A DNA stretch of 64,000 bases, from NCBI GenBank assembly GCA_046733335.1, contig JBKPOX010000084.1, positions 6,911 through 70,910 on the forward strand. The letters are read 5' to 3'. The position numbers and the translations under genes are program-made. The notes beneath the pieces are model-generated. The model ran no database searches and had not been told where the DNA came from. It saw only the letters and a program-made list of their open reading frames with translations. This stretch comes from Actinomycetota bacterium (GTDB lineage: Bacteria > Actinomycetota > Thermoleophilia > Solirubrobacterales > 70-9). Shown here in pieces: positions 32,722 through 53,055 of this stretch; within the stretch, counting starts at the first letter, position 1; each line of letters starts with the position of its first letter.

Positions 32722-33873
32722 CTAACGCCGCAGGCGCGGCCCGCGGTCCTTGGGTTCGCCGGGGGCGCGGGCGCGGTAGAGCTTGGCCCGGTAATCGAGC
32801 CCCTTGAGGCGGCGCTCGCCGACGTAGGAGTAGTCGAAGTCCTCGCCCGCCGCCTCCTTCGTCTCCTCGTCGAGGACGACGCTGCCGGGGCGGGCGACGC
32901 CGGTGATGCGGCTGGCGAGGTTGACCGCGCGGCCGTAGTAGTCGCCCGACTGGGGGAGGGTGGGGCCGCTGGCGATCCCGGCCCGCAACCAGGGGAACTG
33001 CTGCCCTTCCGCCTCGGCGGCGTCGATCAGCGCCAGCGCCGCGGAGACCATCGGCTTGGGCTCGGTGGAGACCAGCATCACCTCGTCGCCGATCGTCTTC
33101 ACCAGTCGCACCGGCGGCTCGGCGACGGCGGTGGCCATCTCCTCCAGCCGCCCCGCGACCATCCCCAGCTCCTCCGGCGCGATTTCCTCCCCGAGCCGGG
33201 TGAACTCGACCAGGTCGGCGAAGCAGACGGTGAGGTGGACCGTGCCGCCGACGTCACCCGAGGCGAGGTCGGTGGCGCCGATCACGTCGCGGCGGATCTG
33301 TTCCAGCAGGTGCGCCTGGAGGGCGTAGACGACCGTCGGCCCGACCAGCGGCAGCATGTAGTCGGCTGCGGCGACGAAGCGCTGGGCGACGTCGCGTTCG
33401 GTGTCGCCGGGCCGGATCAGGTTGCGGACGATCAGCTCCCGGTTCGCTTCGGCGATCCGCGCCGTGCCCATTCCGATCGTGCGGGCGACCTGCAGCAGTC
33501 CGTCCTCGGGCAGCCCCGCGTCGATGAAGGCCTTCACCCGGCGGGCCGCCTCGAGGTCGGCCTCGCTGGCGCGGCGTTCGTCGGGGTCCGGGTAGGGGAT
33601 GCCTAGCGCGGCGCGGAAGCGCTGCAACACGTCGAGGTCGATCTCCGCCCGCTCGGCCACCTCGCGGGCGGTGTAGCGGGGGCCCTCGCCGGCGAGCGCC
33701 CGCTCGACGGGCAGCAGGGTCAGGCGACCGGCCGCCACCGCGTCCTTCAGCTCCTCGAGCGTGCAGCCTTCCTGGGCGAGCTGGTCGAGCAGCTGCCGCC
33801 GGGCCTCGCGCGGCGCGCCCGCGATCCCGTCCAGCAGCCCCTCGGCCTCGAAGTCGATTTCGGCGCCAGCCAC
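32722..33873 (-). CDS. class III adenylate/guanylate cyclase with N-terminal helical regulatory domain
   Basis: Catalytic domain: TVCFADLVEFTRLGE...VKTIGDEVMLV...LRAGIASGP...GDYYGRAVNLASRI. The N-terminal ~190 aa are helical (possibly Rv1264-type regulatory domain; recollection only). Start is GTG 33873 or TTG 33885, just after the ggt stop. Confidence 0.85.
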   Translation of the reverse strand: MAGAEIDFEAEGLLDGIAGAPREARRQLLDQLAQEGCTLEELKDAVAAGRLTLLPVERALAGEGPRYTAREVAERAEIDLDVLQRFRAALGIPYPDPDERRASEADLEAARRVKAFIDAGLPEDGLLQVARTIGMGTARIAEANRELIVRNLIRPGDTERDVAQRFVAAADYMLPLVGPTVVYALQAHLLEQIRRDVIGATDLASGDVGGTVHLTVCFADLVEFTRLGEEIAPEELGMVAGRLEEMATAVAEPPVRLVKTIGDEVMLVSTEPKPMVSAALALIDAAEAEGQQFPWLRAGIASGPTLPQSGDYYGRAVNLASRITGVARPGSVVLDEETKEAAGEDFDYSYVGERRLKGLDYRAKLYRARAPGEPKDRGPRLRR

Positions 33874-33907
33874 GGGCCCATTCAACCGCCTGGACCGGTT
33901 GCGTGGT

Positions 33908-35413
33908 TCAGGCGTAGGCGACGGCGCCGCCGCGGCGGGGGTCGCCGCCGCCGCTGAGCTCGCCGCTGCGGGGGTCCCGCGCCACCGCCTGCACGCCGCC
34001 GAAGAAGAGGTTGATCGCCGGCCGGCGCGCCACCGGCACGCCGCGCGCTTCGATCCGGCGCAGCGCCTCCTCGTCGATCCCCGGCTCGGCCTGGACGACT
34101 CCCTGCTCGAAGTGCAGCCGCGGCGCCTCGACGGCGGCCGCCACCGGGAAGCCCTGCTCGATCGTGCGGACCACCGTCTGCAGGATCGCCGAGCGGATCC
34201 GGTTGGAGCCGGCGCTGCCGACGGCGAGGACGATCTCACCGTCCCGCAGCACCGCGGTCGGCGCCATCATCGAGGGGACCCGCCGGCCCGGCGCGATGCG
34301 GTGGAAGCCGCCGGGGTTGAGGTCCTCCTCGCCGAGCATGTTGTTGAGGATCACGCCGGTGCCCGGGACGAGGACGCCGGAGCCGGAGCCGTTGGAGCAG
34401 GTGACGGCGGCACAGGCCCCCTGCGAGTCCATCACCGAGATGTGGGTGGTCGAGCCGAGCAGGTCGGCGGCGGCGAGGTCGAGGCCGACCGGGTCGAGGA
34501 AGCTCGTCTCCATGCCCTGCTCGTAGAGCGCCTCGGCGAAGGCGAGGTCGCGGCGGTCGTTCGCCGCCTGCATCGCCAGGACCAGCTGCTCGGGCCCACT
34601 GTGGGGGCCGAAGCGCTCGAGCAGCCCCAGGCAGTAGGCGATGAGAATGCCCCCCGAGGAGGGCGGCGGGTTCGTCAGGACCTCGGCGCCGCGAAACGGG
34701 GCGGCGACGGGCGGCCGCTCGAGCGCCTCGTAGGAGGCGAGGTCGCCGGGGCCGAGCGTGCCGCCGCGGGCGACCACGAACTCGCTGATCCTCGCCGCGA
34801 CCTCGCCCCGGTAGAACGGCTCCGCCCCCTCGGCGGCGAACAGCTCCAGCGCCTCCGCCAGCTCGGGGAAGGCGAAGACGTCGCCCTCGACCAGCCGCCG
34901 TCCCCGGGGCGCGTAGAGCTCGCGCGTCCCCTCCCCCAGCTCATGGATCGGGCCGAGGATCTCGAGGATGTAGGCCTGCTGGCGGTTGACCGGCGCCCCC
35001 TCGCGGGCGAGGCGGATCGCCGGCCCGACCAGGGCCGAGAGCGGCATCGACCCGAAGCGCTGGAGCGCGTGCGCGAGGCCCGCGGCGGTCCCCGGCACCC
35101 CGCAGGACGCCGGGCCGACGTAGAACGTCTGTGTCGTCTCCGCGTCGAAGCGGACCGGGACCGGGACCAGCTCCGCCGTCCGCTCGATCAGGTCCTGCCC
35201 GGGCGCGGCGACGAAGAAGTCGATCAGCGTCGTCTCCCCCGCCTCGTGGACCATCATGTGGCCGCCGGCGCCGAACCCGGTCAGCGGGCTCTCGACCGCG
35301 AACGACGCCAGCACCGCGCAGACCGCGGCGTCGACCGCGTTGCCGCCCTCGCGCAGGACCGCGGCCCCGGCCTCGGCGGTCAGCGGATGGCCGGCTGCGA
35401 CGACCCCTCTCAT
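33908..35413 (-). CDS. ggt: gamma-glutamyltranspeptidase family protein
   Basis: GGHMMV, and the autoprocessing region LLGSTTHISVMDSQGACAAVTCSNGSGSGVLVPGTGVILNNMLGE. Confidence 0.9.
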   Translation of the reverse strand: MRGVVAAGHPLTAEAGAAVLREGGNAVDAAVCAVLASFAVESPLTGFGAGGHMMVHEAGETTLIDFFVAAPGQDLIERTAELVPVPVRFDAETTQTFYVGPASCGVPGTAAGLAHALQRFGSMPLSALVGPAIRLAREGAPVNRQQAYILEILGPIHELGEGTRELYAPRGRRLVEGDVFAFPELAEALELFAAEGAEPFYRGEVAARISEFVVARGGTLGPGDLASYEALERPPVAAPFRGAEVLTNPPPSSGGILIAYCLGLLERFGPHSGPEQLVLAMQAANDRRDLAFAEALYEQGMETSFLDPVGLDLAAADLLGSTTHISVMDSQGACAAVTCSNGSGSGVLVPGTGVILNNMLGEEDLNPGGFHRIAPGRRVPSMMAPTAVLRDGEIVLAVGSAGSNRIRSAILQTVVRTIEQGFPVAAAVEAPRLHFEQGVVQAEPGIDEEALRRIEARGVPVARRPAINLFFGGVQAVARDPRSGELSGGGDPRRGGAVAYA

Positions 35414-35424: not shown

Positions 35425-36945
35425 TCAGCTCGGGAGAAACTCTGGGACGTCGATGCCGAGCTCGCGATCGCCGCCGCGGCCGCGGCGCGGGCCTTCGGCG
35501 TCTTTGGTGCGGCGGATCGTCGGCTCGGCGGCGCGGCGCGGCGGCGTCGTCCGGCCGTCGAAGCGGGTGGCGACGACGGTGACCCAGATCTGGTCGGAGA
35601 GCTCCTCGTCGACGTTGGCGCCGAAGATGATGTTGGCGTCGGGGTGGGCGGCCTCGCCGACCACCTTGGCCGCCTCGGACACCTCGACCAGCGAGAGGTC
35701 GGCGCCGCCGGTTATCGAGAGCAGGATCGAGCGGGCGCCGTCCATCGAGGTCTCCAGCAGCGGTGAGGAGATCGCTTTTTCGGCGGCGAGGACGGCGCGG
35801 TCGTCGCCGTAGGCCATCCCGATCCCGAGCAGGGCGCGCCCGGCTTCGGACATGATCGTCCGCACGTCGGCGAAGTCGAGGTTGATCACGGCGGGGAGGG
35901 TGACGAGGTCCGAGATTCCCTGGACCCCCTGGCGGAGGACGTCGTCGGCGACCTTGAAGGCCTCGACCATCGAGGTCTGCTGGTCGAGCACGTCGAGCAG
36001 GCGGTCGTTGGGGACGACGATCAGGGTGTCGACCTCGGCGGCGAGCTCGTCGATTCCCTTCTGGGCCTGGGTGCCGCGCCGGCTGCCCTCGAAGCTGAAC
36101 GGCTTGGTGACGATGCCGACGGTGAGCGCGCCGACCTCGCGGGCGAGGCGGGCGACGACCGGGGCGGCGCCCGAGCCGGTGCCGCCACCGGCGCCGGCGG
36201 CGACGAAGACCATGTCGGAGCCCTTCAGCAGGCGCTTGATCTTGTCCTGCTCCTCGAAGGCGGAGCGGTGCCCGACCTCGGGGTCTGCGCCGGCGCCGAG
36301 ACCGCGGGTCTGCTCGTCGCCGATGTGGACGGTGACGTCCGCGACGCAGAGCTGCAGCGACTGGAGGTCGGTGTTGACCGCCATGAACTCGACCCCCGGG
36401 ATGCGGGCGTCGACCATCCGGTTGACCGCGTTGACGCCGGCGCCCCCGACCCCGACGACTTTGATCACCGGTTGGTGCGGCTCGCCGCTCCCCGGCGGCT
36501 CGTAGGCAGGCTCCTCCCGCCCGTAGCGCGGCGTATCCGTGGTGAACGCATCGCGCCGCGGCTTCGGCTCCTCGTTGAAGACCCTCTTCAACCGATCCGG
36601 CGCCGACTCACTAGAAGTCTCAACCCCGCTCGAACCCTCGACGTCTTGGTCATAGAGGCCGGGAGCTTGCTCCTGCCGTAGTGGAACGTCAGCCGAAGCC
36701 GCTTCTCCAGCGGGTGGCGTCGTAGGGGGGACCCCCTCCTGCCGCGCAGGAGGGGGTGGGTCCCCTGCGGCGACAGGACCCGCTGGCCGATCCGCCTCAT
36801 CCTGAAGTCTCTTTGCCTCGGCCGGGTCTTCCCTGCCGTACCGCGGCGCCTCCGGCGGATCGATCGGCGCGTCCTCCGACGTCGACCGGAAGAGGTCCGA
36901 CAGCGGCCCCTCGCGCATGCTTGCCCGCTTGTTACGCCGAGCCAT
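35425..36945 (-). CDS. ftsZ: cell division protein FtsZ with ~150-aa N-terminal extension
   Basis: Core: [45 protein letters not shown] (tubulin signature), [15 protein letters not shown]-terminal peptide is [13 protein letters not shown] 36945 has AAGGAGG 8 nt upstream and overlaps the ParA-like stop by 14 nt. No credible SD precedes the GTG nearer the core. Confidence 0.9.
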
Positions 36946-38074
36946 GGGACAGAACCTCCTTCGCCAGCTCCCGGTAGTAGTTGGCAGCGCTCGAGTTCGA
37001 ATCGTACTTGAGCACGGAGGAGCCTTTGACGGGGGCCTCGGCGAATTTGATCGCCTTCTTGATCCGCGACTGGAAGACGAGGTCGCCGAAGTTCTCCTCG
37101 AGGATCTCCACCGCCTCCTTGGCGTGGATCGTCCGCGAGTCCAGCATCGTCGGCAGGATGCCCTCGATCCGCACGTCGGGGTTGAGGTTCTCCTGGATCA
37201 TCCGCAGGGTGTTCTGGAGCTGGACCAGCCCGCGCATCGACAGGTACTCGCACTGGACCGGGACGATCACCTTGTTCGCCGCGGTCAGCGCGTTGATCGT
37301 CAGCAGGCCCAGGCTGGGCGGCGTGTCGATGCAGACGAAGTCGTAGTCGCCGGCGACCTCTTTGAGCGCTTTCTCCAGCGAGCGCTCGCGGCCGATCTTC
37401 GTGCTCATCGCGATCTCGGCGCCCGCCAGGTCGATCGAGGCGACGGCGATGTCGATCTCGCGCTTGACGATGATCTCGGCGATCGGCATGTCGTTGACGA
37501 GCACGTCGTAGAGGCTCTTCTCGACCTTGTCGGGATCGATCCCCTGGCTCATCGTCAGGTTCCCCTGCGGGTCGAGGTCGACGCAGAGCACCCGATAGCC
37601 GGACTCGGCGAAGGCCACCGCCAGGTTCAGGGTGGTGGTCGTCTTCGCGACCCCGCCCTTCTGGTTGGCGAACGCGATGACCTCGGCGCTCTTCACCGGC
37701 GCCTCCTCGACCGCCTCCTTCTCCTTCAGGAAGTCGAGCCGCGTCGGCGCGATCAGGTCGACAGCCTTCATACGAGCATCTCCCCCGTCCTCCGGCTCCT
37801 CCTCCACAGCCTTCACCGACGGCTCGGCCTTCTCGACCACCACCTCGGACGGCTCGATCTGCTCCGCCGGCGACGTCTCAGCCGCGGGTGGCGACGATTC
37901 CGAGGACTTTCCCGGTAGGGAGAGCCCGGAATCGGAGACAGGACCTGCGGGCCAGGCGCTCTCGTCCCGTAGGGGTACCGCCTCTTCCATCTCCTGCAGG
38001 TCGTCGACGATCTGCCGCTCCTCCTGAATCTCGACGGGAGCAGGCTTCGGCTTCTTTCGGCTTAGAAATCCCAT
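36932..38074 (-). CDS. ParA/Soj-family ATPase (orphan, PldP/Rv1708-like), possible ~100-aa N-terminal extension
   Basis: [43 protein letters not shown] (deviant Walker A KGGVAKTT), [17 protein letters not shown]. Alternative start ATG 37771 has GGGGGAG upstream. The longest form starts at 38074 ([11 protein letters not shown]...) and has no SD. Confidence 0.85.
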
Positions 38075-38166
38075 TGCGCGGATATTCGTATGGGGGCCGG
38101 CTTTTCCTGCCGGCTGCCGAAATTGCTAGGAATCAGCCAATCCCCGACCTCCTCGACAAGCGGCTC

Positions 38167-39060
38167 GTGATCGTCACCGGCAAGGGTGGCGTCGGCAAGA
38201 CGACCGTCGCCGTGGCGCTCGGCCTGCGCGCCGCGAGCGAAGGCAAGCGCACGATCGTCTGCGAGGTCGCCTCGCAGGAGAACGCCTCGCGGATGTTCGA
38301 GCACACCGCCGTCGGCTTCCACGAGGTGGAGATGGAGGAGAACCTGTGGTCGATCTCGATCGACCCCGATGAGTCGATGCGCGAGTACGTGCTGCTGCAG
38401 CTGAAGGTGCGGGCGATGCGGGACATGCTCTTCCGCAGCCGCATCTTCAACTACCTGGCCGCGGCGACCCCGGGGCTGAAGGAGCTGGTGACGATCGGGA
38501 AGATCTGGGAGCTGGCCCAGCTCGACCGCAAGGTGAAGAGGGGGCGCAAGTACGACCTGGTGATCGTCGATGCGCCTGCGACCGGCCACGGCGTCGGCTT
38601 CCTGCAAACGCCGCGCACCTTCGCCTCGATCGCCCGGGTCGGCCCGATCCACTCGCAGGCCCAGACGCTCGACCGCTTCATCACCGACCACGAGAACACC
38701 GGGGCCGCGATCGTCGCCCTGCCGGAGGAGATGCCGGTCAACGAGTCGGTGTCGCTGGAGCGCGACCTGCGCGACGAGGTCGGCGTCTCGGTCGACCGTG
38801 TCTACCTCAACGGCCTCTACCCGGAGCGGTTCAAGAAGGACGAGGCGGAGCGGCTCTGGCAGCTGGCGGAGAACGAGAACGGGGCGGCGAAGGCGGCGGC
38901 GCGGGCGGCGCTCTCGGAGTTCAGGCGGGCGAAATCTCAGCGCTCGCAGCTGAACCGGCTGCGCCGCGGGGTCGAGGCGCCGGTGAAGACGCTGCCCTTC
39001 CTCTTCGAGCCCGAGCTCGACGTCGAGGCGGCGCGGACACTGGCGGGGAGACTCGCCTGA
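38167..39060 (+). CDS. ArsA/Get3-like ATPase 1 (Rv3679-like)
   Basis: VIVTGKGGVGKTTVAVALG (P-loop), IVDAPATGHGVGFL, VALPEEMPVNES. Start is uncertain: GTG 38167 or upstream to TTG 38074. The track ORF from 37888 overlaps the parA-like gene. Confidence 0.8.
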   Translation: MIVTGKGGVGKTTVAVALGLRAASEGKRTIVCEVASQENASRMFEHTAVGFHEVEMEENLWSISIDPDESMREYVLLQLKVRAMRDMLFRSRIFNYLAAATPGLKELVTIGKIWELAQLDRKVKRGRKYDLVIVDAPATGHGVGFLQTPRTFASIARVGPIHSQAQTLDRFITDHENTGAAIVALPEEMPVNESVSLERDLRDEVGVSVDRVYLNGLYPERFKKDEAERLWQLAENENGAAKAAARAALSEFRRAKSQRSQLNRLRRGVEAPVKTLPFLFEPELDVEAARTLAGRLA

Positions 39061-40211
39061 TGGCGTCGGTCGGCGAGGTCCTCGAGGGCAAGTCGATCTG
39101 CATCTGCGCCGGCTCGGGGGGCGTCGGCAAGACGACGACCTCGGCGGCGATCGCCCTGGGGATGGCGGCGCAGGGGCTGAAGGTCTGCGTGCTGACGATC
39201 GACCCGGCGAAGCGGCTGGCCGACTCGCTCGGCCTTGAGGAGCTGGGCAACGAGGCGCGCCGCGTCGACCCGGCGCTGTTCGAGCAGCAGGGCGTGGAGG
39301 TGAGGGGCGAGCTGTGGGCGATGATGCTCGACGCGAAGGCGACCTTCGACGAGCTGATCGCGCGCCAGGCTCCCGACGAGGAGTCGCGCGACCGGGTCCT
39401 GAACAACCGCATCTACCAGCAGATCTCCAGCGCCCTGGCCGGCTCGCAGGAGTACATGGCGATGGAGAAGCTGTTCGAGCTGCACACCGAAGGCGAGTTC
39501 GACCTCCTCGTCCTCGACACGCCCCCGACCCGCAACGCCCTCGATTTCCTCGACGCGCCGAGGAGGCTGACCCAGTTCATCGAGGGCAAATCGCTGCGCG
39601 TGTTCATGAAGCCGACCGGGCTGGCGGCGAAGGTGACCGGCCGCGGCGTCTCGGTCGCCCTCGGCGTCTTCAAGAGGATCGTCGGCTTCGACCTGCTGGC
39701 CGACCTGGCGGAGTTCTTCAACGCCTTCAGCGGCATGGTCGACGGCTTCCAGGCGCGGGCGAAGCGGGTCAACAAGCTGCTGGCCGACCCGGAGACCTGC
39801 TTCCTCGTCGTCTGCGGGCCCCAGGGGGAGCCGATCGACGAGGCCGTCTACTTCCACCGCAAGCTGGTCGAGGCGAAGCTTCCCTTCGGCGGCGTCGTCG
39901 TCAACAAGGTCCACTACCCCGCGGACGAGCTGCGGGCCGAGGTCGAAGACCTCCCGACCGCCCTCGGCGAGAAGCTCGGCGACGGCGACCTCGCCAAGCG
40001 GGTCGCCGCCAACTTCGCCGATTACCAGGCCCTCGCCGAGCGCGACGCGCGCAACATCGACCACCTCGCCTCCGAGCTGCGGACCAGCTGCGTCATCCGC
40101 GTCCCCTACCTCGACGAGGACGTCCACGATTTGGCCGGGCTCTCCCAGATCGACCGCTACCTCTTCGCCACGGCGCAGGAGCGGGTGGAGATGGCGGCGG
40201 GCCGGGCCTAG
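39060..40211 (+). CDS. ArsA/Get3-like ATPase 2 (Rv3680-like)
   Basis: ICICAGSGGVGKTTTSAAIALG, LTIDPAKRLADSLG, VLDTPPTRNALDFLDAP. The ATG shares 1 nt with the stop of ATPase 1 (TGATG). Confidence 0.85.
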   Translation: MASVGEVLEGKSICICAGSGGVGKTTTSAAIALGMAAQGLKVCVLTIDPAKRLADSLGLEELGNEARRVDPALFEQQGVEVRGELWAMMLDAKATFDELIARQAPDEESRDRVLNNRIYQQISSALAGSQEYMAMEKLFELHTEGEFDLLVLDTPPTRNALDFLDAPRRLTQFIEGKSLRVFMKPTGLAAKVTGRGVSVALGVFKRIVGFDLLADLAEFFNAFSGMVDGFQARAKRVNKLLADPETCFLVVCGPQGEPIDEAVYFHRKLVEAKLPFGGVVVNKVHYPADELRAEVEDLPTALGEKLGDGDLAKRVAANFADYQALAERDARNIDHLASELRTSCVIRVPYLDEDVHDLAGLSQIDRYLFATAQERVEMAAGRA

Positions 40212-41036: not shown

Positions 41037-42770
41037 CTAGCCCGCGCGGTTGCGCGAGTAGTCGAACTCGAGGTGGTCGACCTCCCAGTCCGCGTCGGGC
41101 ACCGGGAAGAGGTGACGGACCCGGGGGGTGTCGATTCGCTCGCGGTGCTCGATGTCGCGGTCCGAGGCAGCGGGCCATTCGAGCGAGTCGCCGGGTCGGG
41201 CTTCTGAGACCTCCTCCAGCCACGGCGTGGCGGTGATCCTGATCTCGTCCTCGGCCGGGACCGGCTCCATGATGCGGGTCTCCTGCTCCACGTACTCCTC
41301 CTCCGGTAGTTCGTCGACGGGCAGCTGAAGCTCGGCGGAGGGCTCGGGCTCGGCGATGACCCTGAACTCGGGCTCGGAGCCGGCCTCGAACTCGGGCTCC
41401 TCCAGCGCCGGTGCGGGCTCGGGTTCCGCTTCCACGGGCGTCTCGGCTGGGACCGAGACGGTGATCTCGGCGTCGCCGGCCCCGAGGCCGTTGACGATCA
41501 GGGTCTCGTCGGCGGTCGTGCTGAGGTCGTTGCCGAGGTCCCCCAACGCCGCCTGGCGCAGCAGCCCGCGGGTCCCCTCCTCCATCCAGGTCGCGATCTC
41601 TACCGCCCGCTCCATCGGCAGGCCGTTCATCATCGCCCGCTCCAGCCCGAGCACGTCCTCGATCCGCTCGCGCGCCTCGATCCGGTCCATCGAATCGTCC
41701 TCGATCAAGGCGGCGGCCCGCAGCGGCAGCGAGGCGCCGACGGGGCCGTGGCCCTCGAGCACCGCGCGCATCGCCAGCAGGTGGTCGCTCAGCCCCTCGA
41801 GCGCCGTCGGGCGCTCGCAGCCCATCTCGAAGCGGCCGACCGCCCAGGTGAGGGCTGTATCGGGATCCGGCCGGGCCTCCAGCGCGGCGGCGAAGTCGAC
41901 GAGCGCCTCGGCCTCCGCCTCCCCAAGGCGGTAGCCGCCGGGCCGGGCCGCGGGGGCGCCGGTGGCGATCCGCCGCCAGCAGCCCTCGCCGGTAGGCGCG
42001 AAGGCGTGCGGCCCGAGGCCGATTCCGCCTCCCTTGAAGAGCCTCATCACGCTGATCAGCTCACGCAGCTGCTGCAGGGCCGTCTCGGCGCCGCCGTCGG
42101 CGTCCTGGTCGGCGACGGCCAGGTATTGCGGCTCCCAGGCGGCGCGGCCCATCCCCTCGCTGCGCATCGCCTCCACCGGCGCATCGATCGAGTCGGCACG
42201 GACGATCCGCACCCCGTGGGGCAGCTGCAGCCGCGGCGAGGACATGCGCAGGCCGACGATCGGGACGATCAGCACCTCGGCTTCGTCGGCGTCGCGGGAT
42301 TCGGCGTCGAGGGTGGCGAGAGCCGCCTCGAGGCGCTCCCGGTCAAGCGTGAAGCCGGCGGTCCCGTCCCAGAGGGAGGCGAAGAAGGCGATCAGCATCC
42401 CCTCGGCGCGCTCGCCGGGGTCGGCGGGGACGGGCTCCCCCCGCTCCTCCAGGTAGGAGGCGGCGACGCCGGCTTCGACCGCGGCCTCGCGCGCGGCGGC
42501 GAAGCTCGGCAGCGACCGCAGCTCCTCCGCGTGGCTGCGCACGTACTCGCCGGTCATCGGCACGTAGCTGTAGAAGGCGCCCTCCTCCCCGCCGTCGGCG
42601 GCGACGTCGAAGGGGATCTCCTCCCCCATCGCGACGAGCGAGCTGAGCCGGGTCGCGGCCTCGGTGGCGAGCCGCTTTACCGATTCGTTCAGGAGGAAAT
42701 CACGCACCCCCCAGGCTTCCGCCCCCGGCTGGGCGCTCCTGCGCTTGCACGATCGCTTGCACAGGCGCAT
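41037..42770 (-). CDS. hypothetical protein with acidic Glu/Pro-rich C-terminal third
   Basis: 577-aa ORF with consistent codon bias. I recognise no family motif. The C-terminal region is ...PAETPVEAEPEPAPALEEPEFEAGSEPEF...ELPEEEYVEQE. Start is uncertain (ATG 42770 lacks an SD). Confidence 0.55.
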   Translation of the reverse strand: MRLCKRSCKRRSAQPGAEAWGVRDFLLNESVKRLATEAATRLSSLVAMGEEIPFDVAADGGEEGAFYSYVPMTGEYVRSHAEELRSLPSFAAAREAAVEAGVAASYLEERGEPVPADPGERAEGMLIAFFASLWDGTAGFTLDRERLEAALATLDAESRDADEAEVLIVPIVGLRMSSPRLQLPHGVRIVRADSIDAPVEAMRSEGMGRAAWEPQYLAVADQDADGGAETALQQLRELISVMRLFKGGGIGLGPHAFAPTGEGCWRRIATGAPAARPGGYRLGEAEAEALVDFAAALEARPDPDTALTWAVGRFEMGCERPTALEGLSDHLLAMRAVLEGHGPVGASLPLRAAALIEDDSMDRIEARERIEDVLGLERAMMNGLPMERAVEIATWMEEGTRGLLRQAALGDLGNDLSTTADETLIVNGLGAGDAEITVSVPAETPVEAEPEPAPALEEPEFEAGSEPEFRVIAEPEPSAELQLPVDELPEEEYVEQETRIMEPVPAEDEIRITATPWLEEVSEARPGDSLEWPAASDRDIEHRERIDTPRVRHLFPVPDADWEVDHLEFDYSRNRAG

Positions 42771-46586: not shown

Positions 46587-47810
46587 CTATGCCTCCAGCG
46601 CCAAGCCGTAGGGAAGGGTCAGTCGCGCCGCGGTGGCGGTGTCCACAGCGCCGAGCGCGGGGGGCAGCGCTTGGGCGATCGGCAGCCCGATCCCAGCTTC
46701 CATCTGCGCGGCGATGCCCTGGATGGCGCTGCCGGGCCCGCAGAGGACGACGTTCTCGATCGGCACCGCGCCCTCCTGGGCGCCGTAGTAGTCGAGCGAG
46801 AGCCGCAGCTCGTCGACCAGCGCGGTGACGCCGGACTCGAGCGCAGCCCGGGCCTCGCCGACGATCCCGGGGTCCCCCTCGATCTGCTCGAGCGGAGTCT
46901 CGAGACCGACGTGGGACAGCCACATCGTCGCGTGTTCGGCGGTGAGCCCGCGCCCGACCGCTAGGCGGTCGACGATCGCCCCGAGGCCGGCGTGCGAGGC
47001 CCGGGTGAAGAGACAGGAGCGGCCGCGGGCGACCGCGAGGTTCATGATGTCTCCGATGCTGCAGTAGAGGGTGGCGCTGGTCGGCCGCTGCAGCTCGCCC
47101 TCAGGCGCCTGCACCGTCGGGGCCATGTCCGCCAGGGCTCGGATCATCCCGAAGGCGGAGAGATCGACGCCGACCGGTTCGACCCCTGCCCGGCGCAGGG
47201 GCTGCAGGAAGGCGGCGATCATGTCGCGGCGGGCGGCGATCAGGACGACGTCGATCTGAGGCGGCGCGCCCTCCTCGGCCGGAACCCCGCCGACGACCTG
47301 GTACTCGAGCACCGCGTGTTCGAGCGGCATCGGCATCTGCTCCTGGGCCTGGAAGCGGACGGCCGCATCCAGCTCCTTCCGATCCTCGATCGCCGGCAGC
47401 CGCACGGTCCTCACCACGACCGCCTGGTTGCCGATCCCGAGGCGGACCTGCTTGCCGAGCTTGTGCTCGGAGAAGAACGACCGCAGCGCCTGGCCCAGCG
47501 CCTCGCCGTTGACGACCTCGCCCTCGTGGAACACGCCGGGCGGCAGGGGGCCGACGGCGGCGTTGCCGAGCTGGGCGGTGCCGCTGCCGCGGAGTTCGAC
47601 CGCGCCGACGCTGCCGGCCTCGATCTCGACCCCGACCACGGCCCCCGCCTGGCTCTTGCGGGTCAGCGAGAAGCCCCGCGGGAGCTGCATGCCGCGGAGC
47701 TGGATCTTGGGTAGTTGGATGTCCTTGGTCAGTTGCATCGTCATCGGGGCCGCTTGCGCCGCTCGCCTCTCCATCGACACGTGAGCCGGAAAACTTTTGC
47801 CCTGCAGCAC
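46587..47810 (-). CDS. pilM: type IV pilus assembly ATPase-fold protein PilM
   Basis: Actin-like fold pattern: VGVEIEAGSVGAVEL ... LGIGNQAVVVRTVRLP ... VGVDLSAFGMIRAL ... VLCGPGSAIQGI. Start could be any of several in-frame codons between 47810 and about 47690. Confidence 0.85.
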   Translation of the reverse strand: MLQGKSFPAHVSMERRAAQAAPMTMQLTKDIQLPKIQLRGMQLPRGFSLTRKSQAGAVVGVEIEAGSVGAVELRGSGTAQLGNAAVGPLPPGVFHEGEVVNGEALGQALRSFFSEHKLGKQVRLGIGNQAVVVRTVRLPAIEDRKELDAAVRFQAQEQMPMPLEHAVLEYQVVGGVPAEEGAPPQIDVVLIAARRDMIAAFLQPLRRAGVEPVGVDLSAFGMIRALADMAPTVQAPEGELQRPTSATLYCSIGDIMNLAVARGRSCLFTRASHAGLGAIVDRLAVGRGLTAEHATMWLSHVGLETPLEQIEGDPGIVGEARAALESGVTALVDELRLSLDYYGAQEGAVPIENVVLCGPGSAIQGIAAQMEAGIGLPIAQALPPALGAVDTATAARLTLPYGLALEA

Positions 47811-47816
47811 CGCGAT

Positions 47817-48572
47817 CTAGGTGAACGCCTGGAGGTACCAGTCGACGATCTGATCTCCCGCCAGCAGGCCGACCACTCCACCCAGGGCGAGGAAGGGTCC
47901 GAAGGGGATCGCCCGCTTGCGCGCGGCGGCGCCGTGGCGGGCGATGATCCCGAGCCCGACGAGCGAGCCGGCGAGGAGCGCCACCAGCAGCGCCGGGGCG
48001 ACGTCGCGGCCGAGGAAGAGGCCCATCACCGCCGCCAGCTTGACGTCGCCCAGGCCCATTCCCCGCGGGTAGGCGAGCGCCGCCGCGAAGAGGAGGCCGC
48101 CGGCGCCGAGGGCGGCGGCCAGGCGCTCCGGCAGGCTCGCGGGGTCCCCCATGGCGGCGATCCCCAGGCCCAGCACCGCCCCCGCCAGCAAGACCCTGTT
48201 GGGGATGATCCGCCGCTCGAGATCGGTCACCGTGACCGTGACCAGGGTGCTGACGAAGACGAGCCCGAGGGCGATCTCGGTCGGATCGCCCCAGAGAACC
48301 GCCACCGTCAGCACGTAGAGGAGCGCCAGGGCGACCTCGGTCAGCGGGTAGCGGGCCGAGATGCGGCTCTCGCAGCAGCGGCTGCGCCCCCGCAGCAGCA
48401 CCCAGGAGAGAACCGGGACGTTGTCGTAGGCGGCGATGCCGGTGCCGCAGCCCGGGCAGCGCGAGCGTGGGGCGACGACCGATTCGCCGCGCGGCACCCG
48501 GTGGGCGACGACGGTGAGGAAGCTGCCGAAGGCCAGCCCCCAGAGGAAGATGACGAGCAGCGCGGGGGCCAT
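47817..48572 (-). CDS. pilD: prepilin peptidase (A24 family)
   Basis: CPGCG...CC Zn-site region, MGLGDVKLAAVMG and IPFGPFLALG (the two catalytic Asp regions). ATG 48572; the track ORF to 49001 is over-extended. Confidence 0.9.
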   Translation of the reverse strand: MAPALLVIFLWGLAFGSFLTVVAHRVPRGESVVAPRSRCPGCGTGIAAYDNVPVLSWVLLRGRSRCCESRISARYPLTEVALALLYVLTVAVLWGDPTEIALGLVFVSTLVTVTVTDLERRIIPNRVLLAGAVLGLGIAAMGDPASLPERLAAALGAGGLLFAAALAYPRGMGLGDVKLAAVMGLFLGRDVAPALLVALLAGSLVGLGIIARHGAAARKRAIPFGPFLALGGVVGLLAGDQIVDWYLQAFT

Positions 48573-48574
48573 TC

Positions 48575-49945
48575 TCAGTTGCCGCTTACCGGGGTCGGGG
48601 TTTCGACCTCGATCCGGGCCCGGAAGCTCGGGTGGTCGTACATCAGCGAGACCGCGTCGCCGCCGGTTTTGCCGTCGACGCTGAGCGCCAGCCCGAGGCG
48701 GTGGCCTTCGAGCACGGTGTGGGGACCGTTGAAGAGCATTGGCACCTGCAGCTCGAACCATTCCCGCGGCCACTGGTTGGTGCTGGGGCTCCAGCGCCAG
48801 CCGGCGACCCCGGTCTGCTTGTTCAGCAGGTAGGCGTCGCTGTATTTGGCGCCTTCTTCGGTGCGGTCGAAGAGGTACACGCAGAGGGCCCCGGTGTAGC
48901 CCGTTTCGTTGATCGCCCGCGTCTTGATCACCAGCGTCACCCGTTCGCTCATCACCAGGTCGGCGGCAAGGGGATCGGTCACCCAGCGGTGGACCTGCCA
49001 CTGCGGCACGGCGGTGCCGGTGGGGACGTTGTGGCAGCCGGAGCTGTCGTCGCGGCGCAGCTGGATTCCCTTCGCCGCGGGGCTGATCACCTGCAGGGGG
49101 TAATCGGTCGAGTAGCTGTATTCGAGCGGCTGGGTCGGGTCGGCCGGGGTCGCGTCGGGGGGGGAGCCGAGGACGAGGGCGTCGGGCGCGGTGCCGTCGG
49201 TGGAGGCGCAGGTCCCGAGCGTGTTGTGCAGGGTGTGGCTGGCGGCGATGTCTTCCCGGAGGGCCGTCCCACCGGCTACGCAGCGGGTGTCGGAGAGGAA
49301 GAACTGCTGCGCGGTCGTGACGCCGTTGCCGCCCGGGATCGGGTCGTTTTTGGCGCTGTCTTTCGGGTTGATGAAGGTCGACTGGACTTCGACGTAGCCC
49401 TGCTCGGAGGCCTGGTTCGCCGCCTTGTCGAGCCGCACCGCAATCACCGCCTGTTTGTAGTCCTGCGGTCCGGGACAGGTCGTTTCCGGGCAGCTGGCGT
49501 CGTTGCGCCAGACGATGTACCGGTAGATCTTCCCGCTCACGTTGCCGCTGGTGAAGCTGGTCGGCCCAGGATCGACCGTGCCCGTGGTGATCGGGCCGGC
49601 ACCGTAGAGGCTGCCGGTGTTGTAGACCAGTTCGGGGTGCAACCCGACCAGGTCCCGGTCAAGGTAGAAGGTGCCGTTGCTGACGCGGTAGTTCGGGCTC
49701 TTCGGATTCGTCTCGTGGCCGGGGTTCGAGGTCAGCGCCAGCTGTTCGTCGGAGAGGCCGCGGAGCACCTCCAGCTCCTGCTGGGCGCGGTTGAGGGCGA
49801 CCTGGGTGGCCTTGGCTCGCTGGTTGTTCAGCGTCGCCGCCCGCAGCAGGCCGAAGGCGGTCAGGGAGCCGACCACCATGATCATCGCCGCGATCAGGAC
49901 CTCCACGAGCGTGAACCCCTCCTCTTTGCGCATCCGCTTCTCCAT
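48575..49945 (-). CDS. large minor pilin / pseudopilin (PilV-like N-terminus, ~400-aa C-terminal domain)
   Basis: MEKRMRKEEG-FTLVEVLIAAMIMVVGSL is a prepilin cleavage/methylation motif with E5. The ATG shares 1 nt with the upstream stop (TGATG). Confidence 0.8.
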   Translation of the reverse strand: MEKRMRKEEGFTLVEVLIAAMIMVVGSLTAFGLLRAATLNNQRAKATQVALNRAQQELEVLRGLSDEQLALTSNPGHETNPKSPNYRVSNGTFYLDRDLVGLHPELVYNTGSLYGAGPITTGTVDPGPTSFTSGNVSGKIYRYIVWRNDASCPETTCPGPQDYKQAVIAVRLDKAANQASEQGYVEVQSTFINPKDSAKNDPIPGGNGVTTAQQFFLSDTRCVAGGTALREDIAASHTLHNTLGTCASTDGTAPDALVLGSPPDATPADPTQPLEYSYSTDYPLQVISPAAKGIQLRRDDSSGCHNVPTGTAVPQWQVHRWVTDPLAADLVMSERVTLVIKTRAINETGYTGALCVYLFDRTEEGAKYSDAYLLNKQTGVAGWRWSPSTNQWPREWFELQVPMLFNGPHTVLEGHRLGLALSVDGKTGGDAVSLMYDHPSFRARIEVETPTPVSGN

Positions 49946-50511
49946 CAGTTGGCGAGGGTCGCGTTGCGAAGGCTGGCGCCGTCGGAGACGGTCGTGGTGT
50001 CGGAGCCGCCGCCGGCGCTGGGGATGACCAGCGTCACCTTGACGTAGCTCGCGGAGGGATAAGAGAATTCGGTCGCCGCTCCCAGGCCGCTGACCATCTT
50101 CACCGGAGTGCCTCCGGTCAGGACGCCGGGCATGGTCTCGGTCCGGCTGCAGGTGCCGCTCGCGCACGTGTAGCGAACCTGGCATTTGATCGAGGGCGAG
50201 GTCGGGGCGAGCGCCGTGCCCGAACCGCATGCGCTGCTGCGAACATAGGTTTCGAAGCTGACCGTGGTCGCTTTCGGTTCGGCGACCGAGATCCCGTTGC
50301 GGAGCTCACGGGTCATCCGCTCCAGCGCCCAGCGGGCGGTCTGGATGTTGCCGGCGCTCTCGCTCAGGTTCGGCTGCGCGCGCACGGCCCCGATCAGCAC
50401 CGTCACCACACCGGCCATCAGCACGATCCCGATCGCGGCGGCGACGAGGAGCTCGATCAGGGTCATGCCCGCCTCCCCGTCCCCCAGCCGCCGGCGCACC
50501 GCGGCGACCAT
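49945..50511 (-). CDS. minor pilin / pseudopilin
   Basis: [34 protein letters not shown] is a prepilin-type N-terminus. The ATG shares 1 nt with the upstream stop (TGATG). Confidence 0.8.
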   Translation of the reverse strand: MVAAVRRRLGDGEAGMTLIELLVAAAIGIVLMAGVVTVLIGAVRAQPNLSESAGNIQTARWALERMTRELRNGISVAEPKATTVSFETYVRSSACGSGTALAPTSPSIKCQVRYTCASGTCSRTETMPGVLTGGTPVKMVSGLGAATEFSYPSASYVKVTLVIPSAGGGSDTTTVSDGASLRNATLAN

Positions 50512-52922
50512 CAGCTCACCACCCTGAAACGGCGGGACGCCGGGCGGAGCTCGCGCAGGCCGGAGTTCGACCCTTTGACGCTGAAGGCGTGCTTGCCGGG
50601 CGTGAGCCGCCTCGAGCGGAAGGGGGAGGAGCATCCTCGCCAGCGCCCGGAGTCGACCCGGCACTCGAATTCGGTCCCGCTTTGGCCGGTCGAGTCGTCG
50701 AACCGGAACACGGGGCGGCGCGCCCTGGTCCTGCTGGCGGGGCCGAAGGTAATCCGCGTCAGCGGCACGACCGGCTGGGCGTTGCCGATGCCGCCGCCGC
50801 TCGCCGGCTTCGACGGAGCGGTCGTGCCGCCGCCGCTGGCGGTGGTCGAGCTGCTGCCGGTACCCGGGCTGCTGCCGGTTCCGCCCGAGGACCCACCGTC
50901 GCCGGGGCCTTCCACCGGGGGTTCTGCAGGTGCATCGGCCTGCTGGTATTTCAGGCCAGCCGCCGAGCAGCCCGAGGTGTCGCCGTTGGCGTCGGTGGCG
51001 GTGGCGCGGAAGAACGTCGTCGACCCCGGATCGACGACGACGCGGATCCCGTTCCCGACCAGTTCGGCCGCGGTCCCGACGCCGCTCCTGACCGGCGCTC
51101 CCGAGCAGTCCGGGGACGAGTAGATCTTGATCGAGGTGCCCGGGTCGCTTTGGCCCATCACCCGCGGTTCGAGCGATGGGTTCGGCGAGCCGGGGGAGGT
51201 GGCGGTGAGGATCGGGGTCGAAGGGCCGAGCTCGACCGAGTTGCCGGTGGAGATCAGCCGCGTCTTGCCGGCGGCGCGCTCGTAGACGTCTATCTCGGAG
51301 TCGACGTCCTCGCTGCTGAGGCGCTCCGCGGTGGAGAAGACGAGGTGGCTGCCGTCAGTGGAGACGTCCTCGAAGCTGGAGTCGCAACCTTCTTCGCCGG
51401 GCAGGGGACAGACCCCGGTCGGGGTTCCGAGCAGCGTGTTCGGCGTCCCGCCCAGTTCGCGCAGGTAGACGTCGACCGCCGAGTCTTCGTCGCCTGCCGC
51501 CAGCGGTTCCGCGCTTGAGAAAAAGACCCTGGTGGCGTCCGCCGCGAGCGCTGCGAATCTGGCCTCGGCATTCTCGCCTCCGCAGCCCGGGCAGCCGCTC
51601 GCCGGCGCCGAGATCAGGGTCGTGGCCGCGGTCTCGAGGTCGCGGCTGTAGATGTCGAGAGCGCTGTCGCCGTCGCTCAGGTCGAGCTGCTCGGACGTCT
51701 GGAAGAAGACGTGCTCGCCGTCGCCCGACGCCGCCCGGAATTCCGGGTTGCAGGTGGAGATCGGGCAGGTCCCGCTCGGCGAGACCAGAACCGTCGTCCC
51801 CCCGGCGAGGTCGCGCTCGTACACGTCGGTCGCGGTGTCGCCGTCGTCGCCGGCGAGTGCTTCTCCGGTCTGGAAGATCACCCTGTCGCCGTCGCTGGAG
51901 GCAGCCGAGAAAGTCGCCGGCTTCAGCTGGTTGACGCAGGCGCCGCAGGAGGGATCTGGGCGGGAGACGAGGGCGACACCGCTCGAGGACCAGGCGTACA
52001 GGTCGGAGATCTGATCGCCGTCGCCGGCGTCGATCGGCTGCGTCGTCTGGAAGAAGACCGAACCGCCGCTCGGGGTGGTGCCGCGGAAGACGGCGTCGCA
52101 CTCGAGCCCGACCGGGCAGGCGCCGCTCGGCGTGACGAGGCTGGTGGCGGAGGTGGACAGGTCCCTGCGGTAGACGTCCTGGAACTGGTCGCCGTCGCTG
52201 GCGGCGAGCGACTCGCTGGTGGTGAAGTAGACGACGTCGCCGTCCTCGGAGGAGCCCTCGAAGACCGAGGGAGCCGTGCCGTCTCCGCAGCTACCGACGC
52301 AGCCGGGGGCGGCTTGGGAAACGAGGTGGGTCTTCGCGGGCGCCGCGAGGTCGCGGGCGTAGACGTCGAAGCCGCTGTCGTCGTCTTCCGCGTCGAGGGG
52401 CTCGTTCGTGGAGAAGAAGAGGACGCTGCCGTCCGCGGCGGCGCCGAGGAAGGTCGAGCCGGCGGCTTCGGAGTTGCCGCAGGTCCCGCTGCAGGTTTCG
52501 GTCGCCACCGAGACGAGGCTGGTGGCGCCATTGGCCAGATCGCGCAGGTAGACGTCGTCGCGTTTGTCTTTGTCGGCGGCGACCAGCGACTCTTCCGTGG
52601 AGAAGAACGCCCTCTCGCCGTCGGAGCTGTTGCCCTCGAAGAGCGCGCTGAAGGCGTCGTTGCCGCCGGTCGGTCCGGTGGAGACCTGACGGGTGACGTA
52701 GGTCCCCCCCTCGACGTTCGGGTCGAAGGAGCGCTCGTAGATGTCGGGCTGGCCGTCGGTGTCGCCCAGGACCAGGCGCTCGTCGGTTTCGAAGAAGACG
52801 ACGCTGCCGTCGGCCGCAGATCCTTTGTAGGTCGCCGGCGCGGCGAGAGCCGCTGCCGGGAGGAGCAGCAGGGTCAAGAGCAGCAGGCCCGCCGCGGTGG
52901 TTCCCAGTTTCGCTCGATGCAT
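50511..52922 (-). CDS. secreted 9-repeat Cys-rich propeller-like (PD40/TolB-like) protein with two C-terminal Ig-like domains
   Basis: Signal peptide MHRAKLGTTAAGLLLLTLLLLPAAALAAP. Nine ~57-63-aa repeats with consensus F.G.S.DG..VFF.T.E.L...D.D...DVY.RDL....T.LVS....C..(2-6)C. Then a PDCSG...ATDANGDTSGCS Ig-like domain, a Gly/Ser linker, and an FECRVDSGRWRGCSSPF...GKHAFSV Ig-like domain. Confidence 0.8.
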   Translation of the reverse strand: MHRAKLGTTAAGLLLLTLLLLPAAALAAPATYKGSAADGSVVFFETDERLVLGDTDGQPDIYERSFDPNVEGGTYVTRQVSTGPTGGNDAFSALFEGNSSDGERAFFSTEESLVAADKDKRDDVYLRDLANGATSLVSVATETCSGTCGNSEAAGSTFLGAAADGSVLFFSTNEPLDAEDDDSGFDVYARDLAAPAKTHLVSQAAPGCVGSCGDGTAPSVFEGSSEDGDVVYFTTSESLAASDGDQFQDVYRRDLSTSATSLVTPSGACPVGLECDAVFRGTTPSGGSVFFQTTQPIDAGDGDQISDLYAWSSSGVALVSRPDPSCGACVNQLKPATFSAASSDGDRVIFQTGEALAGDDGDTATDVYERDLAGGTTVLVSPSGTCPISTCNPEFRAASGDGEHVFFQTSEQLDLSDGDSALDIYSRDLETAATTLISAPASGCPGCGGENAEARFAALAADATRVFFSSAEPLAAGDEDSAVDVYLRELGGTPNTLLGTPTGVCPLPGEEGCDSSFEDVSTDGSHLVFSTAERLSSEDVDSEIDVYERAAGKTRLISTGNSVELGPSTPILTATSPGSPNPSLEPRVMGQSDPGTSIKIYSSPDCSGAPVRSGVGTAAELVGNGIRVVVDPGSTTFFRATATDANGDTSGCSAAGLKYQQADAPAEPPVEGPGDGGSSGGTGSSPGTGSSSTTASGGGTTAPSKPASGGGIGNAQPVVPLTRITFGPASRTRARRPVFRFDDSTGQSGTEFECRVDSGRWRGCSSPFRSRRLTPGKHAFSVKGSNSGLRELRPASRRFRVVS

Positions 52923-52982
52923 GAGTTCTCTCTCTATCGGCGCGATCCGGTCATCCGTTTAGTCCTCCGGTTGCGAGGAAAC

Positions 52983-53015: not shown

Positions 53016-53055
53016 AACCTCAGGCTTGCCGGAGAATCCCGGCTAAGCGTCGGGG

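Follow-up and report, generated by a model that had tools for sequence, protein, structure and literature searches.

The stretch of DNA analysed here (64,000 nucleotides of contig JBKPOX010000084.1, assembly GCA_046733335.1, from a Solirubrobacterales member of the class Thermoleophilia; hereafter the window) carries a gene for the division protein FtsZ directly behind a gene for a ParA-type ATPase. In this class, FtsZ is encoded outside the division and cell wall (dcw) cluster, in the same position behind the ATPase gene, and bears a near-invariant N-terminal peptide, which points to a so far undescribed two-protein mode of Z-ring placement. While the parts themselves belong to known kinds, the arrangement, that is an activator-type peptide carried by FtsZ, its occurrence throughout the class and the loss of the dcw position, is new. 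Our literature search found no paper on a peptide-bearing FtsZ, a parA-ftsZ unit, the KGGVAKTT motif of the ATPase or division genes of Thermoleophilia.

The two genes and their junction are arranged as follows.

36932-38074, minus strand: gene for the ParA/Soj-type ATPase, 380 amino acids counted from the first ATG, with the ATPase core at about residues 130-380
35425-36945, minus strand: ftsZ, an open reading frame (ORF) of 506 amino acids
36932-36945, minus strand: stretch of 14 nt shared by the end of parA (stop codon TAA, 36932-36934) and the beginning of ftsZ (start codon ATG, 36943-36945)
36955-36961, minus strand: Shine-Dalgarno sequence AAGGAGG for ftsZ, lying inside the parA codons that encode ..AKEV..

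The spacing between AAGGAGG and the ftsZ ATG is 9 nt, or 8 nt if the site is read as AAGGAGGT. No mur, fts, sepF or other dcw genes were found within the 64-kb window, which holds metabolic and type IV pilus genes instead, and the typical position of ftsZ at the end of the dcw cluster is abandoned in the window and in about 200 related loci alike. An earlier reading of the letters alone (the original prediction) had described a deviant-Walker ParA/Soj-type ATPase as the first gene, an ftsZ standing apart from the usual division genes and followed by ggt, a start codon with AAGGAGG in front of it and a 14-nt overlap with parA, and an N-terminal extension of about 150 amino acids. When the ORFs, coordinates and motifs were checked, this description proved to be right in every checkable detail.

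The association of peptide, ATPase and gene order was examined from both sides. From the side of FtsZ, a degenerate DNA pattern for [KR][KR]x[ST]MR[ED]GPLxxLF was scanned against one genome per species in 8-kb blocks. It matched at least 120 loci, and 120 of the 120 listed were FtsZ N-termini; the FtsZ core followed the peptide wherever the 8-kb block allowed, and among the matches listed there was no chance match and no other peptide-bearing protein. Upstream DNA of 900 nt or more was available in 107 listed loci, and in each of these the gene that ended at the ftsZ start was ParA-like (62-98% identical). The two genes overlapped by 14 nt in 47 listed loci, by 29 nt in 26 and by 4-20 nt in 24 others, and AAGGAGGT or AGGAGGT occupied the same place in the junction in most of the 120 listed species loci. 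Taxa represented among the matches listed were Solirubrobacterales, Solirubrobacteraceae, Thermoleophilaceae, Gaiellales, Gaiellaceae, Thermoleophilia, and unresolved metagenome-assembled genomes (MAGs) of Actinomycetes and Actinomycetota.

From the side of the ATPase, an alignment of seven ATPase cores, independent of the FtsZ peptide, was searched against metagenome contigs, and the best 80 loci (61-98% identity) were kept. FtsZ lay downstream in 51/51 of these best loci with at least 900 nt of downstream DNA (45 found by the pattern and 6 on inspection). The peptide was present in 70/70 of those with at least 120 nt downstream, in its strict form in 63 and as variants in seven (SMHEGPL/SMHDGPL, SMKDGLSELFRRT, which is without the proline, and S[LM][KR][DN]SGLxxLFRAT). 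Conservation of the parA-ftsZ adjacency and of the peptide in related genomes, which the original prediction had raised as a question, was thus found in every informative locus from either side. The nearest FtsZ proteins devoid of the peptide (P0127 and P0130; 60-61% core identity) are encoded in a standard murD-ftsW-murG-murC-ftsQ-ftsZ-(yfiH-ylmE)-sepF-yggT-divIVA cluster, and no parA was found in these clusters; therefore, the peptide, the ATPase neighbour and the departure from the dcw cluster go together. The named organisms among these nearest peptide-less FtsZs are Kribbella and Varibaculum. As far as sequence comparison can tell, the parA-like gene and ftsZ are a fixed, translationally coupled two-gene unit, and we are highly confident that they form one functional module.

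Two observations concern the range of this module. Divergent metagenome lineages (L199, L201, L202, L203 and L204; 64-67% ATPase identity, some with a guanine plus cytosine (GC) content of 64%) possess an FtsZ extension of about 40 amino acids with the variant peptides MKDGLSELFRRT and S[LM][KR][DN]SGLxxLFRAT, and since they carry the module, it reaches beyond the named orders of Thermoleophilia. Contigs assigned to MAGs of Bifidobacterium breve (L011) and Bifidobacteriaceae (L046) were rejected as signs of spread outside the lineage on account of their DNA, which is 73% and 71% GC, respectively; these contigs are probably mis-binned.

The FtsZ protein itself consists of the following parts, to which the N-terminal linker and its motifs are added further below.

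36880-36945, minus strand: N-terminal peptide, proposed to dock on ParA and activate its ATPase, invariant in close relatives and found also in FtsZ proteins of 57-61% identity
35536-36471, minus strand: GTPase core and C-terminal domain, residues 159-470 (Pfam Tubulin 154 bits, FtsZ_C 110 bits)
35428-35463, minus strand: canonical FtsZ C-terminal peptide, 12 residues, of which a 10-residue part is invariant in relatives

The product scored 410.6 bits with the FtsZ equivalog model TIGR00065 (cut-off 295.2), which places it within the FtsZ family, and it has the G-box GGGTGSG (residues 253-259) and the T7-loop NLDFADV (residues 355-361), both invariant in relatives. The C-terminal peptide of FtsZ is known to bind the membrane anchors SepF and FtsA. 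Since the Tubulin domain (PF00091) spans residues 161-320 and FtsZ_C (PF12327) residues 369-462, about 158 residues precede the core. When about 8000 homologues were scored, the best 120 were 83-100% identical over the full length, extension included. Neither the window FtsZ nor P0123 was on record when looked up as an exact sequence in public assemblies.

Within the extension, conservation is confined to blocks. In 14 relatives (85-94% identity), residues 1-46, a short DVPL..LYDQ block and residues ~111-158 (with ERLKRVF and the second of two PRYGRE motifs) are kept, and the Pro/Ala-rich stretch between them drifts, with indels in frame. A search with the extension against 1.8 billion cluster representatives matched few clusters. 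In those of them that are only 57-61% identical (P0122-P0126 and P0166), the linkers are shorter and unrelated and the first ~20 residues can still be recognised, while the length of the extension across species loci varies from 45 to 167 amino acids. The conserved element is thus an 18-residue N-terminal peptide followed by a variable, Pro/Ala-rich linker; the basic N-terminal peptide, to which the original prediction had drawn attention, turned out to be the best-conserved part of the extension and a universal element rather than a piece of low-complexity bulk. In the consensus of 76 sequences from the ATPase-side sample, R(-5), L, L and F are invariant (76/76), S, M and T occur in 75/76, and basic positions are kept at -6 (K/R), -5 (R) and -1 (R/K); the net charge is about +1, with two or three acidic residues. 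The linker is rich in Pro, Ala and Glu and variable in length. Its disorder was judged from this composition, because the single-chain AlphaFold2 model of FtsZ, built with 14 close relatives, was of low confidence throughout (mean predicted local distance difference test score, pLDDT, 41).

The extension is evidently translated, as had been thought probable, and it is under selection: a ribosome-binding site (RBS) is in place, the peptide always stands at the start of the frame, nucleotide changes are mostly synonymous and indels keep the frame. In codons 1-46 of ftsZ, the window differs from its relative L001 at 14 synonymous and 6 non-synonymous positions, and from a second relative at 9 and 4; in all 120 of the genome matches listed the peptide comes directly after the start codon, 2-8 codons in. 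By the same signs, purifying selection acts on the peptide, whereas the linker drifts. One might object that DNA of 70% GC gives long open frames by chance and that the extension is an annotation artefact, with translation starting near the core. This objection is scarcely credible in view of the strong RBS at the upstream ATG, the position of the peptide in all 120 listed genomes, the mostly synonymous substitutions within it and the in-frame indels of the linker.

The partner of this FtsZ is recognised by its nucleotide-binding motif.

37637-37660, minus strand: deviant Walker A motif KGGVAKTT including the signature lysine, ParA residues 139-146

KGGVAKTT is invariant in 94/94 FtsZ-coupled homologues, and Walker B and catalytic motifs (DFVCIDTPP) are present in alignment with 8RAY and 6IUB. 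In Pfam, the protein scored 207 bits with AAA_31 and 95 bits with CbiA. Its solved relatives are 4PFS (E-value 4e-63), Myxococcus xanthus ParA 8RAY (1e-59), Helicobacter pylori Soj (2e-50), Thermus thermophilus Soj (4e-48) and, far behind, MinD (1e-14). On these similarities it belongs with the chromosomal ParA/Soj-like proteins. Identity with MinD was rejected (TIGR01968 56 bits vs 213; PRK10818 24.5 vs 508; no C-terminal amphipathic membrane helix), and so was identity with MipZ, because PF09140 gave 48 bits over profile positions 2-136 of 262 only, vs 207 bits for AAA_31. A parB gene adjoining the ATPase gene is absent; the gene downstream is ftsZ in every locus examined.

Functional sites of M. 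xanthus ParA, which were defined experimentally (PMC12462528), were mapped onto the window ATPase by alignment to 8RAY. The pocket for the ParB peptide, V116/L150/L152/L155/L187/L192, corresponds to I221/L255/L257/I260/M292/L297, the arginine-contacting residues Y81/E82/D110 to Y189/D190/D215, and the DNA-binding R238 to K343, a predicted DNA-contacting position that is K or R family-wide. Throughout 68 FtsZ-coupled ATPases, the pocket is hydrophobic, the arginine-contact positions are aromatic or acidic, and the DNA-binding position is basic.

The M. xanthus ParB motif is L11-G-R13-G-L15-x-x-L18-I19, in general form Φ-G-[RK]-G-Φ-x-x-Φ-Φ; its four hydrophobic residues insert in the pocket at the dimer edge, and the basic residue contacts an acidic/aromatic patch beside it (PMC12462528). 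The FtsZ peptide, M10-R11-E-G-P-L15-x-x-L18-F19, shares all four of these hydrophobic positions and is one residue longer. The hydrophobic face L, L, F (i, i+3, i+4), equivalent to L15/L18/I19 of ParB, is found in 76/76 sequences and the M in 75/76, and in one lineage a proline-less variant, M-K-D-G-L-S-E-L-F, has exactly the hydrophobic spacing of ParB. What activators of ParA/MinD ATPases (ParB, SopB, ParG, MinE, PomX, and probably McdB and TlpT) have in common is an N-terminal peptide, short and positively charged, which by itself suffices for stimulation of the ATPase and is often placed on an unstructured Ala/Pro-rich region (PMC7993993). The original prediction had noted a loose resemblance to the ParB peptide; compared with the M. 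xanthus motif it is better than loose, and the matching pocket is kept, but the one-residue insertion and the offset of the basic residue set limits to it.

Gene order, translational coupling, conservation and co-occurrence, together with the retained pocket and DNA-binding residues, are what the comparison shows. Co-occurrence, coupling, likeness of the peptide and retention of the pocket make docking of the FtsZ tail on ATP- and DNA-bound dimers of the ATPase the most economical reading. According to this proposal, the ATPase would be a Soj/ParA-type deviant-Walker-A protein, whose ATP-bound dimer binds the nucleoid non-specifically. The 18-residue peptide of FtsZ, held on a flexible Pro/Ala-rich tether, would dock in the hydrophobic cleft at that dimer's edge, in the mode of the N-terminal peptides of ParB, PomX, MinE and McdB, and would probably stimulate ATP hydrolysis. 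FtsZ, being multivalent once polymerised, would then itself belong, as partner or cargo, to a gradient system of ParA type which sets the place of the Z ring relative to the nucleoid. Two outcomes may be envisaged: FtsZ assemblies might position themselves at mid-nucleoid by a flux or a ratchet, as do PomXYZ or carboxysomes (McdAB-like), or the ATPase might act by local antagonism over DNA, similarly to MipZ. As to the contact itself, sequence evidence inclines us, by a small measure, to the view that the N-terminal tail of FtsZ docks directly on the neighbouring ParA-like ATPase. It is a more tentative suggestion, which we consider possible rather than probable, that FtsZ would serve as both cargo and activator of the ATPase, so that Z-ring precursors, made multivalent by their many N-terminal tails, would find mid-nucleoid themselves by riding or depleting the nucleoid-bound gradient of the ATPase.

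Several points weigh against a direct contact of this kind. The basic residue of the FtsZ peptide is offset relative to that of ParB and stands next to the first hydrophobic residue, and there are acidic residues within the peptide. The arginine-contacting E117 of M. xanthus ParA corresponds to A222 in the window, and this position is always small (Ala, Ser or Gly) across the 68 FtsZ-coupled ATPases. No co-variation of the peptide variants with pocket residues was seen, in a comparison confounded by phylogeny. Moreover, what co-occurrence and coupling establish is that the two proteins share a function; physical contact does not follow from them. Physical binding, activation of the ATPase and the choice between positive positioning and local inhibition are what we infer. 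The earlier suggestion that the ATPase regulates FtsZ directly through the tail is consequently upheld as regards coupling, co-occurrence and the retained pocket, and goes beyond them as regards direct binding and stimulation.

Other explanations of the same facts should be considered. One would be that the peptide binds not the ATPase but the membrane, as an amphipathic helix like that of FtsZ in Mycoplasma or Odinarchaeota, or another division factor (SepF, DivIVA or a Ser/Thr kinase, for example), with the ATPase acting through the FtsZ core as MipZ does, or indirectly. The G-x-L-x-x-L-F sequence with basic flanks does resemble membrane-targeting helices too, there are precedents for FtsZ termini that bind the membrane directly, the invariant Ser and Thr flanking the motif could be phosphorylation sites, and the contact of the peptide with the ATPase is itself a matter of inference. 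Nevertheless, a peptide with two to three acidic residues, whose net charge is close to +1, is atypical for membrane targeting, and a second anchor is not obviously needed, given that the C-terminal anchor-binding peptide is retained. A membrane handle would also leave without explanation the restriction of the peptide to ftsZ genes that abut the ATPase gene, as opposed to FtsZs of dcw clusters. We therefore regard this alternative as rather unlikely. It is also conceivable, but quite improbable, that the protein is a specialised second FtsZ paralogue which, together with ParA, forms a positioning or segregation machine for a non-septal cargo, while a housekeeping ftsZ resides elsewhere in a dcw cluster. 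Such a view would suit a gene that lies outside any dcw cluster, joined to ggt and close to type IV pilus genes. Against it speak the score with the equivalog model (410 bits vs 295), the intact GTPase motifs and canonical C-terminal peptide, and the naming of the protein as FtsZ by annotation sources; the nearest named peptide-less FtsZs come from other classes (Kribbella, Varibaculum) rather than from Thermoleophilia. The lack of a second FtsZ in any of about 200 loci points in the same direction, weakly, as these loci are 1-22 kb long.

Mere co-expression would be another way to account for the gene pair. The ATPase would then be the cell's general ParA or parA2 working with ParB, transcribed along with ftsZ so that segregation is tied to division, and the tail of FtsZ would have an unrelated role, for example in tuning polymerisation, as does the FtsZ peptide of Anabaena. 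N-terminal FtsZ peptides that affect polymerisation do exist (PMC6175996), and related orphan ParAs were reported to bind ParB. Yet the overlap of stop and start with an internal RBS is conserved across a class, the one-to-one association extends over a range of ~60-98% sequence identity, and the peptide resembles those of ATPase activators, which together is more than co-expression requires; this explanation seems to us very unlikely.

Comparison of the proposed FtsZ docking with known systems reveals both likenesses and differences. With ParABS (8RAY; PMC12462528) the parA-ftsZ pair shares the type of ATPase, the deviant Walker A, the basic DNA-binding residue and the hydrophobic pocket, as well as a partner gene directly downstream whose product has, at its extreme N-terminus and on a probably disordered tether, a peptide of four hydrophobic residues and one basic residue. 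It differs in that the partner is FtsZ and not a CTP-dependent DNA clamp, that neither parB nor parS is present here, that the peptide has a one-residue G-P insertion and a basic residue beside the first hydrophobic one, and that the ATPase has a small residue in place of E117. In the PomXYZ system of M. xanthus (PMC7993993, PMC13170346), a nucleoid-bound ParA/MinD ATPase likewise places the Z ring, and the activating peptide is found at the N-terminus of a polymer-forming protein, PomX, next to an unstructured Ala/Pro-rich region. There, however, the scaffolds PomX and PomY carry the activity and FtsZ is recruited secondarily, whereas here the peptide belongs to FtsZ and no PomX/Y-like genes are adjacent. 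MinCDE likewise selects the division site, with an ATPase from this superfamily and an activator that bears an N-terminal peptide, but the window ATPase scores far below the MinD cut-off, has no C-terminal membrane helix and has neither minC nor minE adjacent to its gene. MipZ of Caulobacter is positioned by ParB and inhibits FtsZ through the FtsZ core. It resembles the present ATPase as a ParA-like protein acting directly on FtsZ to place the ring, as we presume to be the case here; the MipZ system has no N-terminal FtsZ peptide, and the Pfam match of the window protein to MipZ is weak and partial. Finally, FtsZ of heterocyst-forming cyanobacteria has an N-terminal peptide which is also clade-specific, conserved and needed for normal function (PMC6175996); its sequence is unrelated, and no ATPase partner is mentioned in the title or abstract of that paper.

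If FtsZ does act as both cargo and activator, this would be a minimal, two-protein system of division-site selection that replaces Min, MipZ and Pom in Thermoleophilia and some related deep-branching actinobacteria. To our knowledge, most actinobacteria lack Min and nucleoid-occlusion (Noc) proteins, and both the choice of the division site in these bacteria and the mechanism of the orphan ParA proteins (PldP, Rv1708) are open questions in the field. If docking is confirmed, an activator-type peptide directed at a ParA/MinD ATPase would for the first time be found on FtsZ itself, the rule by which the partner of such an ATPase is recognised from its basic N-terminal peptide would gain a further case, and the control of division would be described for a class of soil bacteria that is abundant yet barely studied. 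Should the ATPase also serve ParB, competition between ParB and the FtsZ tail would couple segregation to the timing of division. The hypothesis that a ParA-type ATPase acts on FtsZ through an 18-residue handle is genetically explicit and directly testable, and the peptide together with the gene order provides a clean genomic marker for the lineage.

A separate problem is the relation of the ATPase to the orphan ParAs of other actinobacteria (PldP/Rv1708/parA2 and Rv3213c), which belong to the same phylum and are likewise ParA-like, with no parB gene next to their own. Among solved structures the closest relative, 4PFS, is a ParA-family protein of Mycobacterium smegmatis, 268 amino acids long and 46% identical to the window ATPase; it also has KGGVAKTT, which confirms this variant of Walker A in an orphan actinobacterial ParA. 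Differences lie in the absence of an ftsZ neighbour and in the loss of pocket residues (Y81 to H, V116 to A, L187 to D and L192 to T). The neighbourhood of its gene (L208), whiB1...entC-gpm2-parA-...-rhlE, with the gpm2-like/entC-like pair and the DEAD-box helicase as flanks, is what we take, by the gene order of Mycobacterium tuberculosis, to be of the Rv3213c type. The original prediction had linked KGGVAKTT to Rv1708/PldP; we treat this link as an assumption, since the variant was confirmed only in the Rv3213c-type protein. The possibility that 4PFS is an orthologue of Rv1708/PldP was rejected because of the neighbourhood of Rv3213c type and because its Walker A lysines, in contrast to K52/K57 of MSMEG_3743, are close to the N-terminus. 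The PDB entries 4PFS, 5IHP and 5IF9 bear the name 'cobyrinic acid a,c-diamide synthase', and all represent this 268-residue Rv3213c-type orphan ParA; our literature search found no relevant paper on the 4PFS entry.

In actinobacteria a second parA is found universally. PldP is a marker of septa, and cells deprived of it form minicells; it was also reported to bind ParB, while Rv1708/MSMEG_3743 complements a min mutant of Escherichia coli and binds ParB and ScpA (PMC3989709, PMC10482377, PMC4255298). The gene of MSMEG_3743, the counterpart of Rv1708, adjoins scpA (MSMEG_3742) (same sources), whereas synteny with scpA/scpB is absent at the window locus, where the neighbours are ftsZ and a bagA-like gene.

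The ATPase, too, may have an N-terminal extension, composed of two parts.

38042-38074, minus strand: N-terminal motif of ParA, 11 residues, hydrophobic residues followed by a basic cluster, kept in L001, L002 and 9 more species
37688-38041, minus strand: variable, acidic and Pro/Ser-rich linker of the ParA extension, residues 12-129

The original prediction had suggested such an extension of about 100 amino acids. In its favour, the frame is open in relatives, giving proteins of 380, 379 and 371 amino acids through in-frame indels, and the first ~16 residues (the motif, then [PS]APVEI) are conserved in L001, L002 and nine further species. In other lineages the gene opens with a variant of the motif (MGLARLLPRPN, MGLFNRGFKPN or MGLFERSRP), and the linker there measures 20-150 residues. 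GC at the three codon positions of the extension (0.74/0.47/0.76) is coding-like in this frame only; the third-position value is below that of the core, 0.96. On the other side, automatic gene callers start the ParA-like gene of relatives at the internal Met102. The motif (MG[LF]xxR, then basic residues and proline) was found in ~39-43 of 94 lineages, about 40%, and is clearly missing in others, and it is therefore an accessory feature. The evidence that the ParA extension is translated is good but weaker than for FtsZ. The start of ParA, MGFLSRKK, may resemble the membrane-targeting start of E. coli MinE (MALLDFFLSRKK); the PDB chains of MinE cover residues 12-88 only.

Three further elements of the FtsZ extension lie behind the N-terminal peptide.

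36829-36846, minus strand: distal PRYGRE motif, residues 34-39
36616-36807, minus strand: variable Pro/Ala/Glu-rich linker, residues ~47-110, poorly conserved and with indels
36514-36531, minus strand: proximal PRYGRE motif, residues 139-144, with ERLKRVF just before it

The duplication of PRYGRE is real, but it is a feature of a subclade. It is exact, as the original prediction had it, and both copies are conserved in the 14 relatives; by our rough reckoning, chance alone would produce ~0.002 exact repeats of six residues in a stretch of 155. It is not general, however, since PRYGR occurs in 23/96 species and two copies of the [YWF]GR[EDQ] motif in only 6/96. The proximal [YWF]GR[EDQ] motif, 15-24 residues (mostly ~20) before the core, was found in 31 cases among the 96 species.

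The linkers of the two proteins have features in common. Third-position GC is 0.58 in the FtsZ linker (codons 47-110, 36616-36807) and 0.76 in the ParA extension (codons 1-101, 37772-38074), and in both cores it is 0.96. A segment RPAGPV...SSPPAG is common to the ParA and FtsZ linkers, over 86 nt at 98.8% identity in L078 and over 27 and 29 nt in L056; in the window only a remnant of about 70% likeness is seen (36768-36807 vs 37933-37972, and 36689-36722 vs 37863-37896). This suggests an intra-operon duplication or gene conversion. As a functional motif general to the module the segment was rejected, because it is limited to a subclade and has the appearance of such an event.

Downstream of ftsZ, the minus-strand group of tightly packed genes is completed by a third member.

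33908-35413, minus strand: ggt-like gene (Pfam G_glu_transpept, 341 bits), with its start 11 nt past the ftsZ stop

The three genes, parA-like, ftsZ and ggt-like, follow one another closely, and ggt is probably co-transcribed with ftsZ. It follows ftsZ in 53 of the 57 species loci with enough downstream DNA, and also in L001, L002 and L005. Its product is a gamma-glutamyltranspeptidase-like protein of cytoplasmic appearance, with no evident reason for linkage to ftsZ. After ggt comes an adenylate cyclase gene with an Ad_Cy_reg domain (32722-34239, minus strand; its start is probably near 33870), as in L001 and L002.

On the other side, two genes for ArsA/Get3-type ATPases resembling mycobacterial BagA/BagB diverge from parA (38074-40211, plus strand), and a BagA-like divergent upstream gene is present in 32/73 related loci. 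The longest frame of the first BagA-like ORF begins with a TTG (38074) that has one base in common with the parA ATG (CATTG), so that no room would be left for an intergenic promoter if both long starts are real. Farther away, within 41-63 kb, pilM-, pilC-, pilT- and pilB-like genes (46587-61129) are interspersed with large ORFs without a Pfam match; minus-strand entries of this type IV pilus region are 41037-42770, 48575-50230 and 50511-52922.

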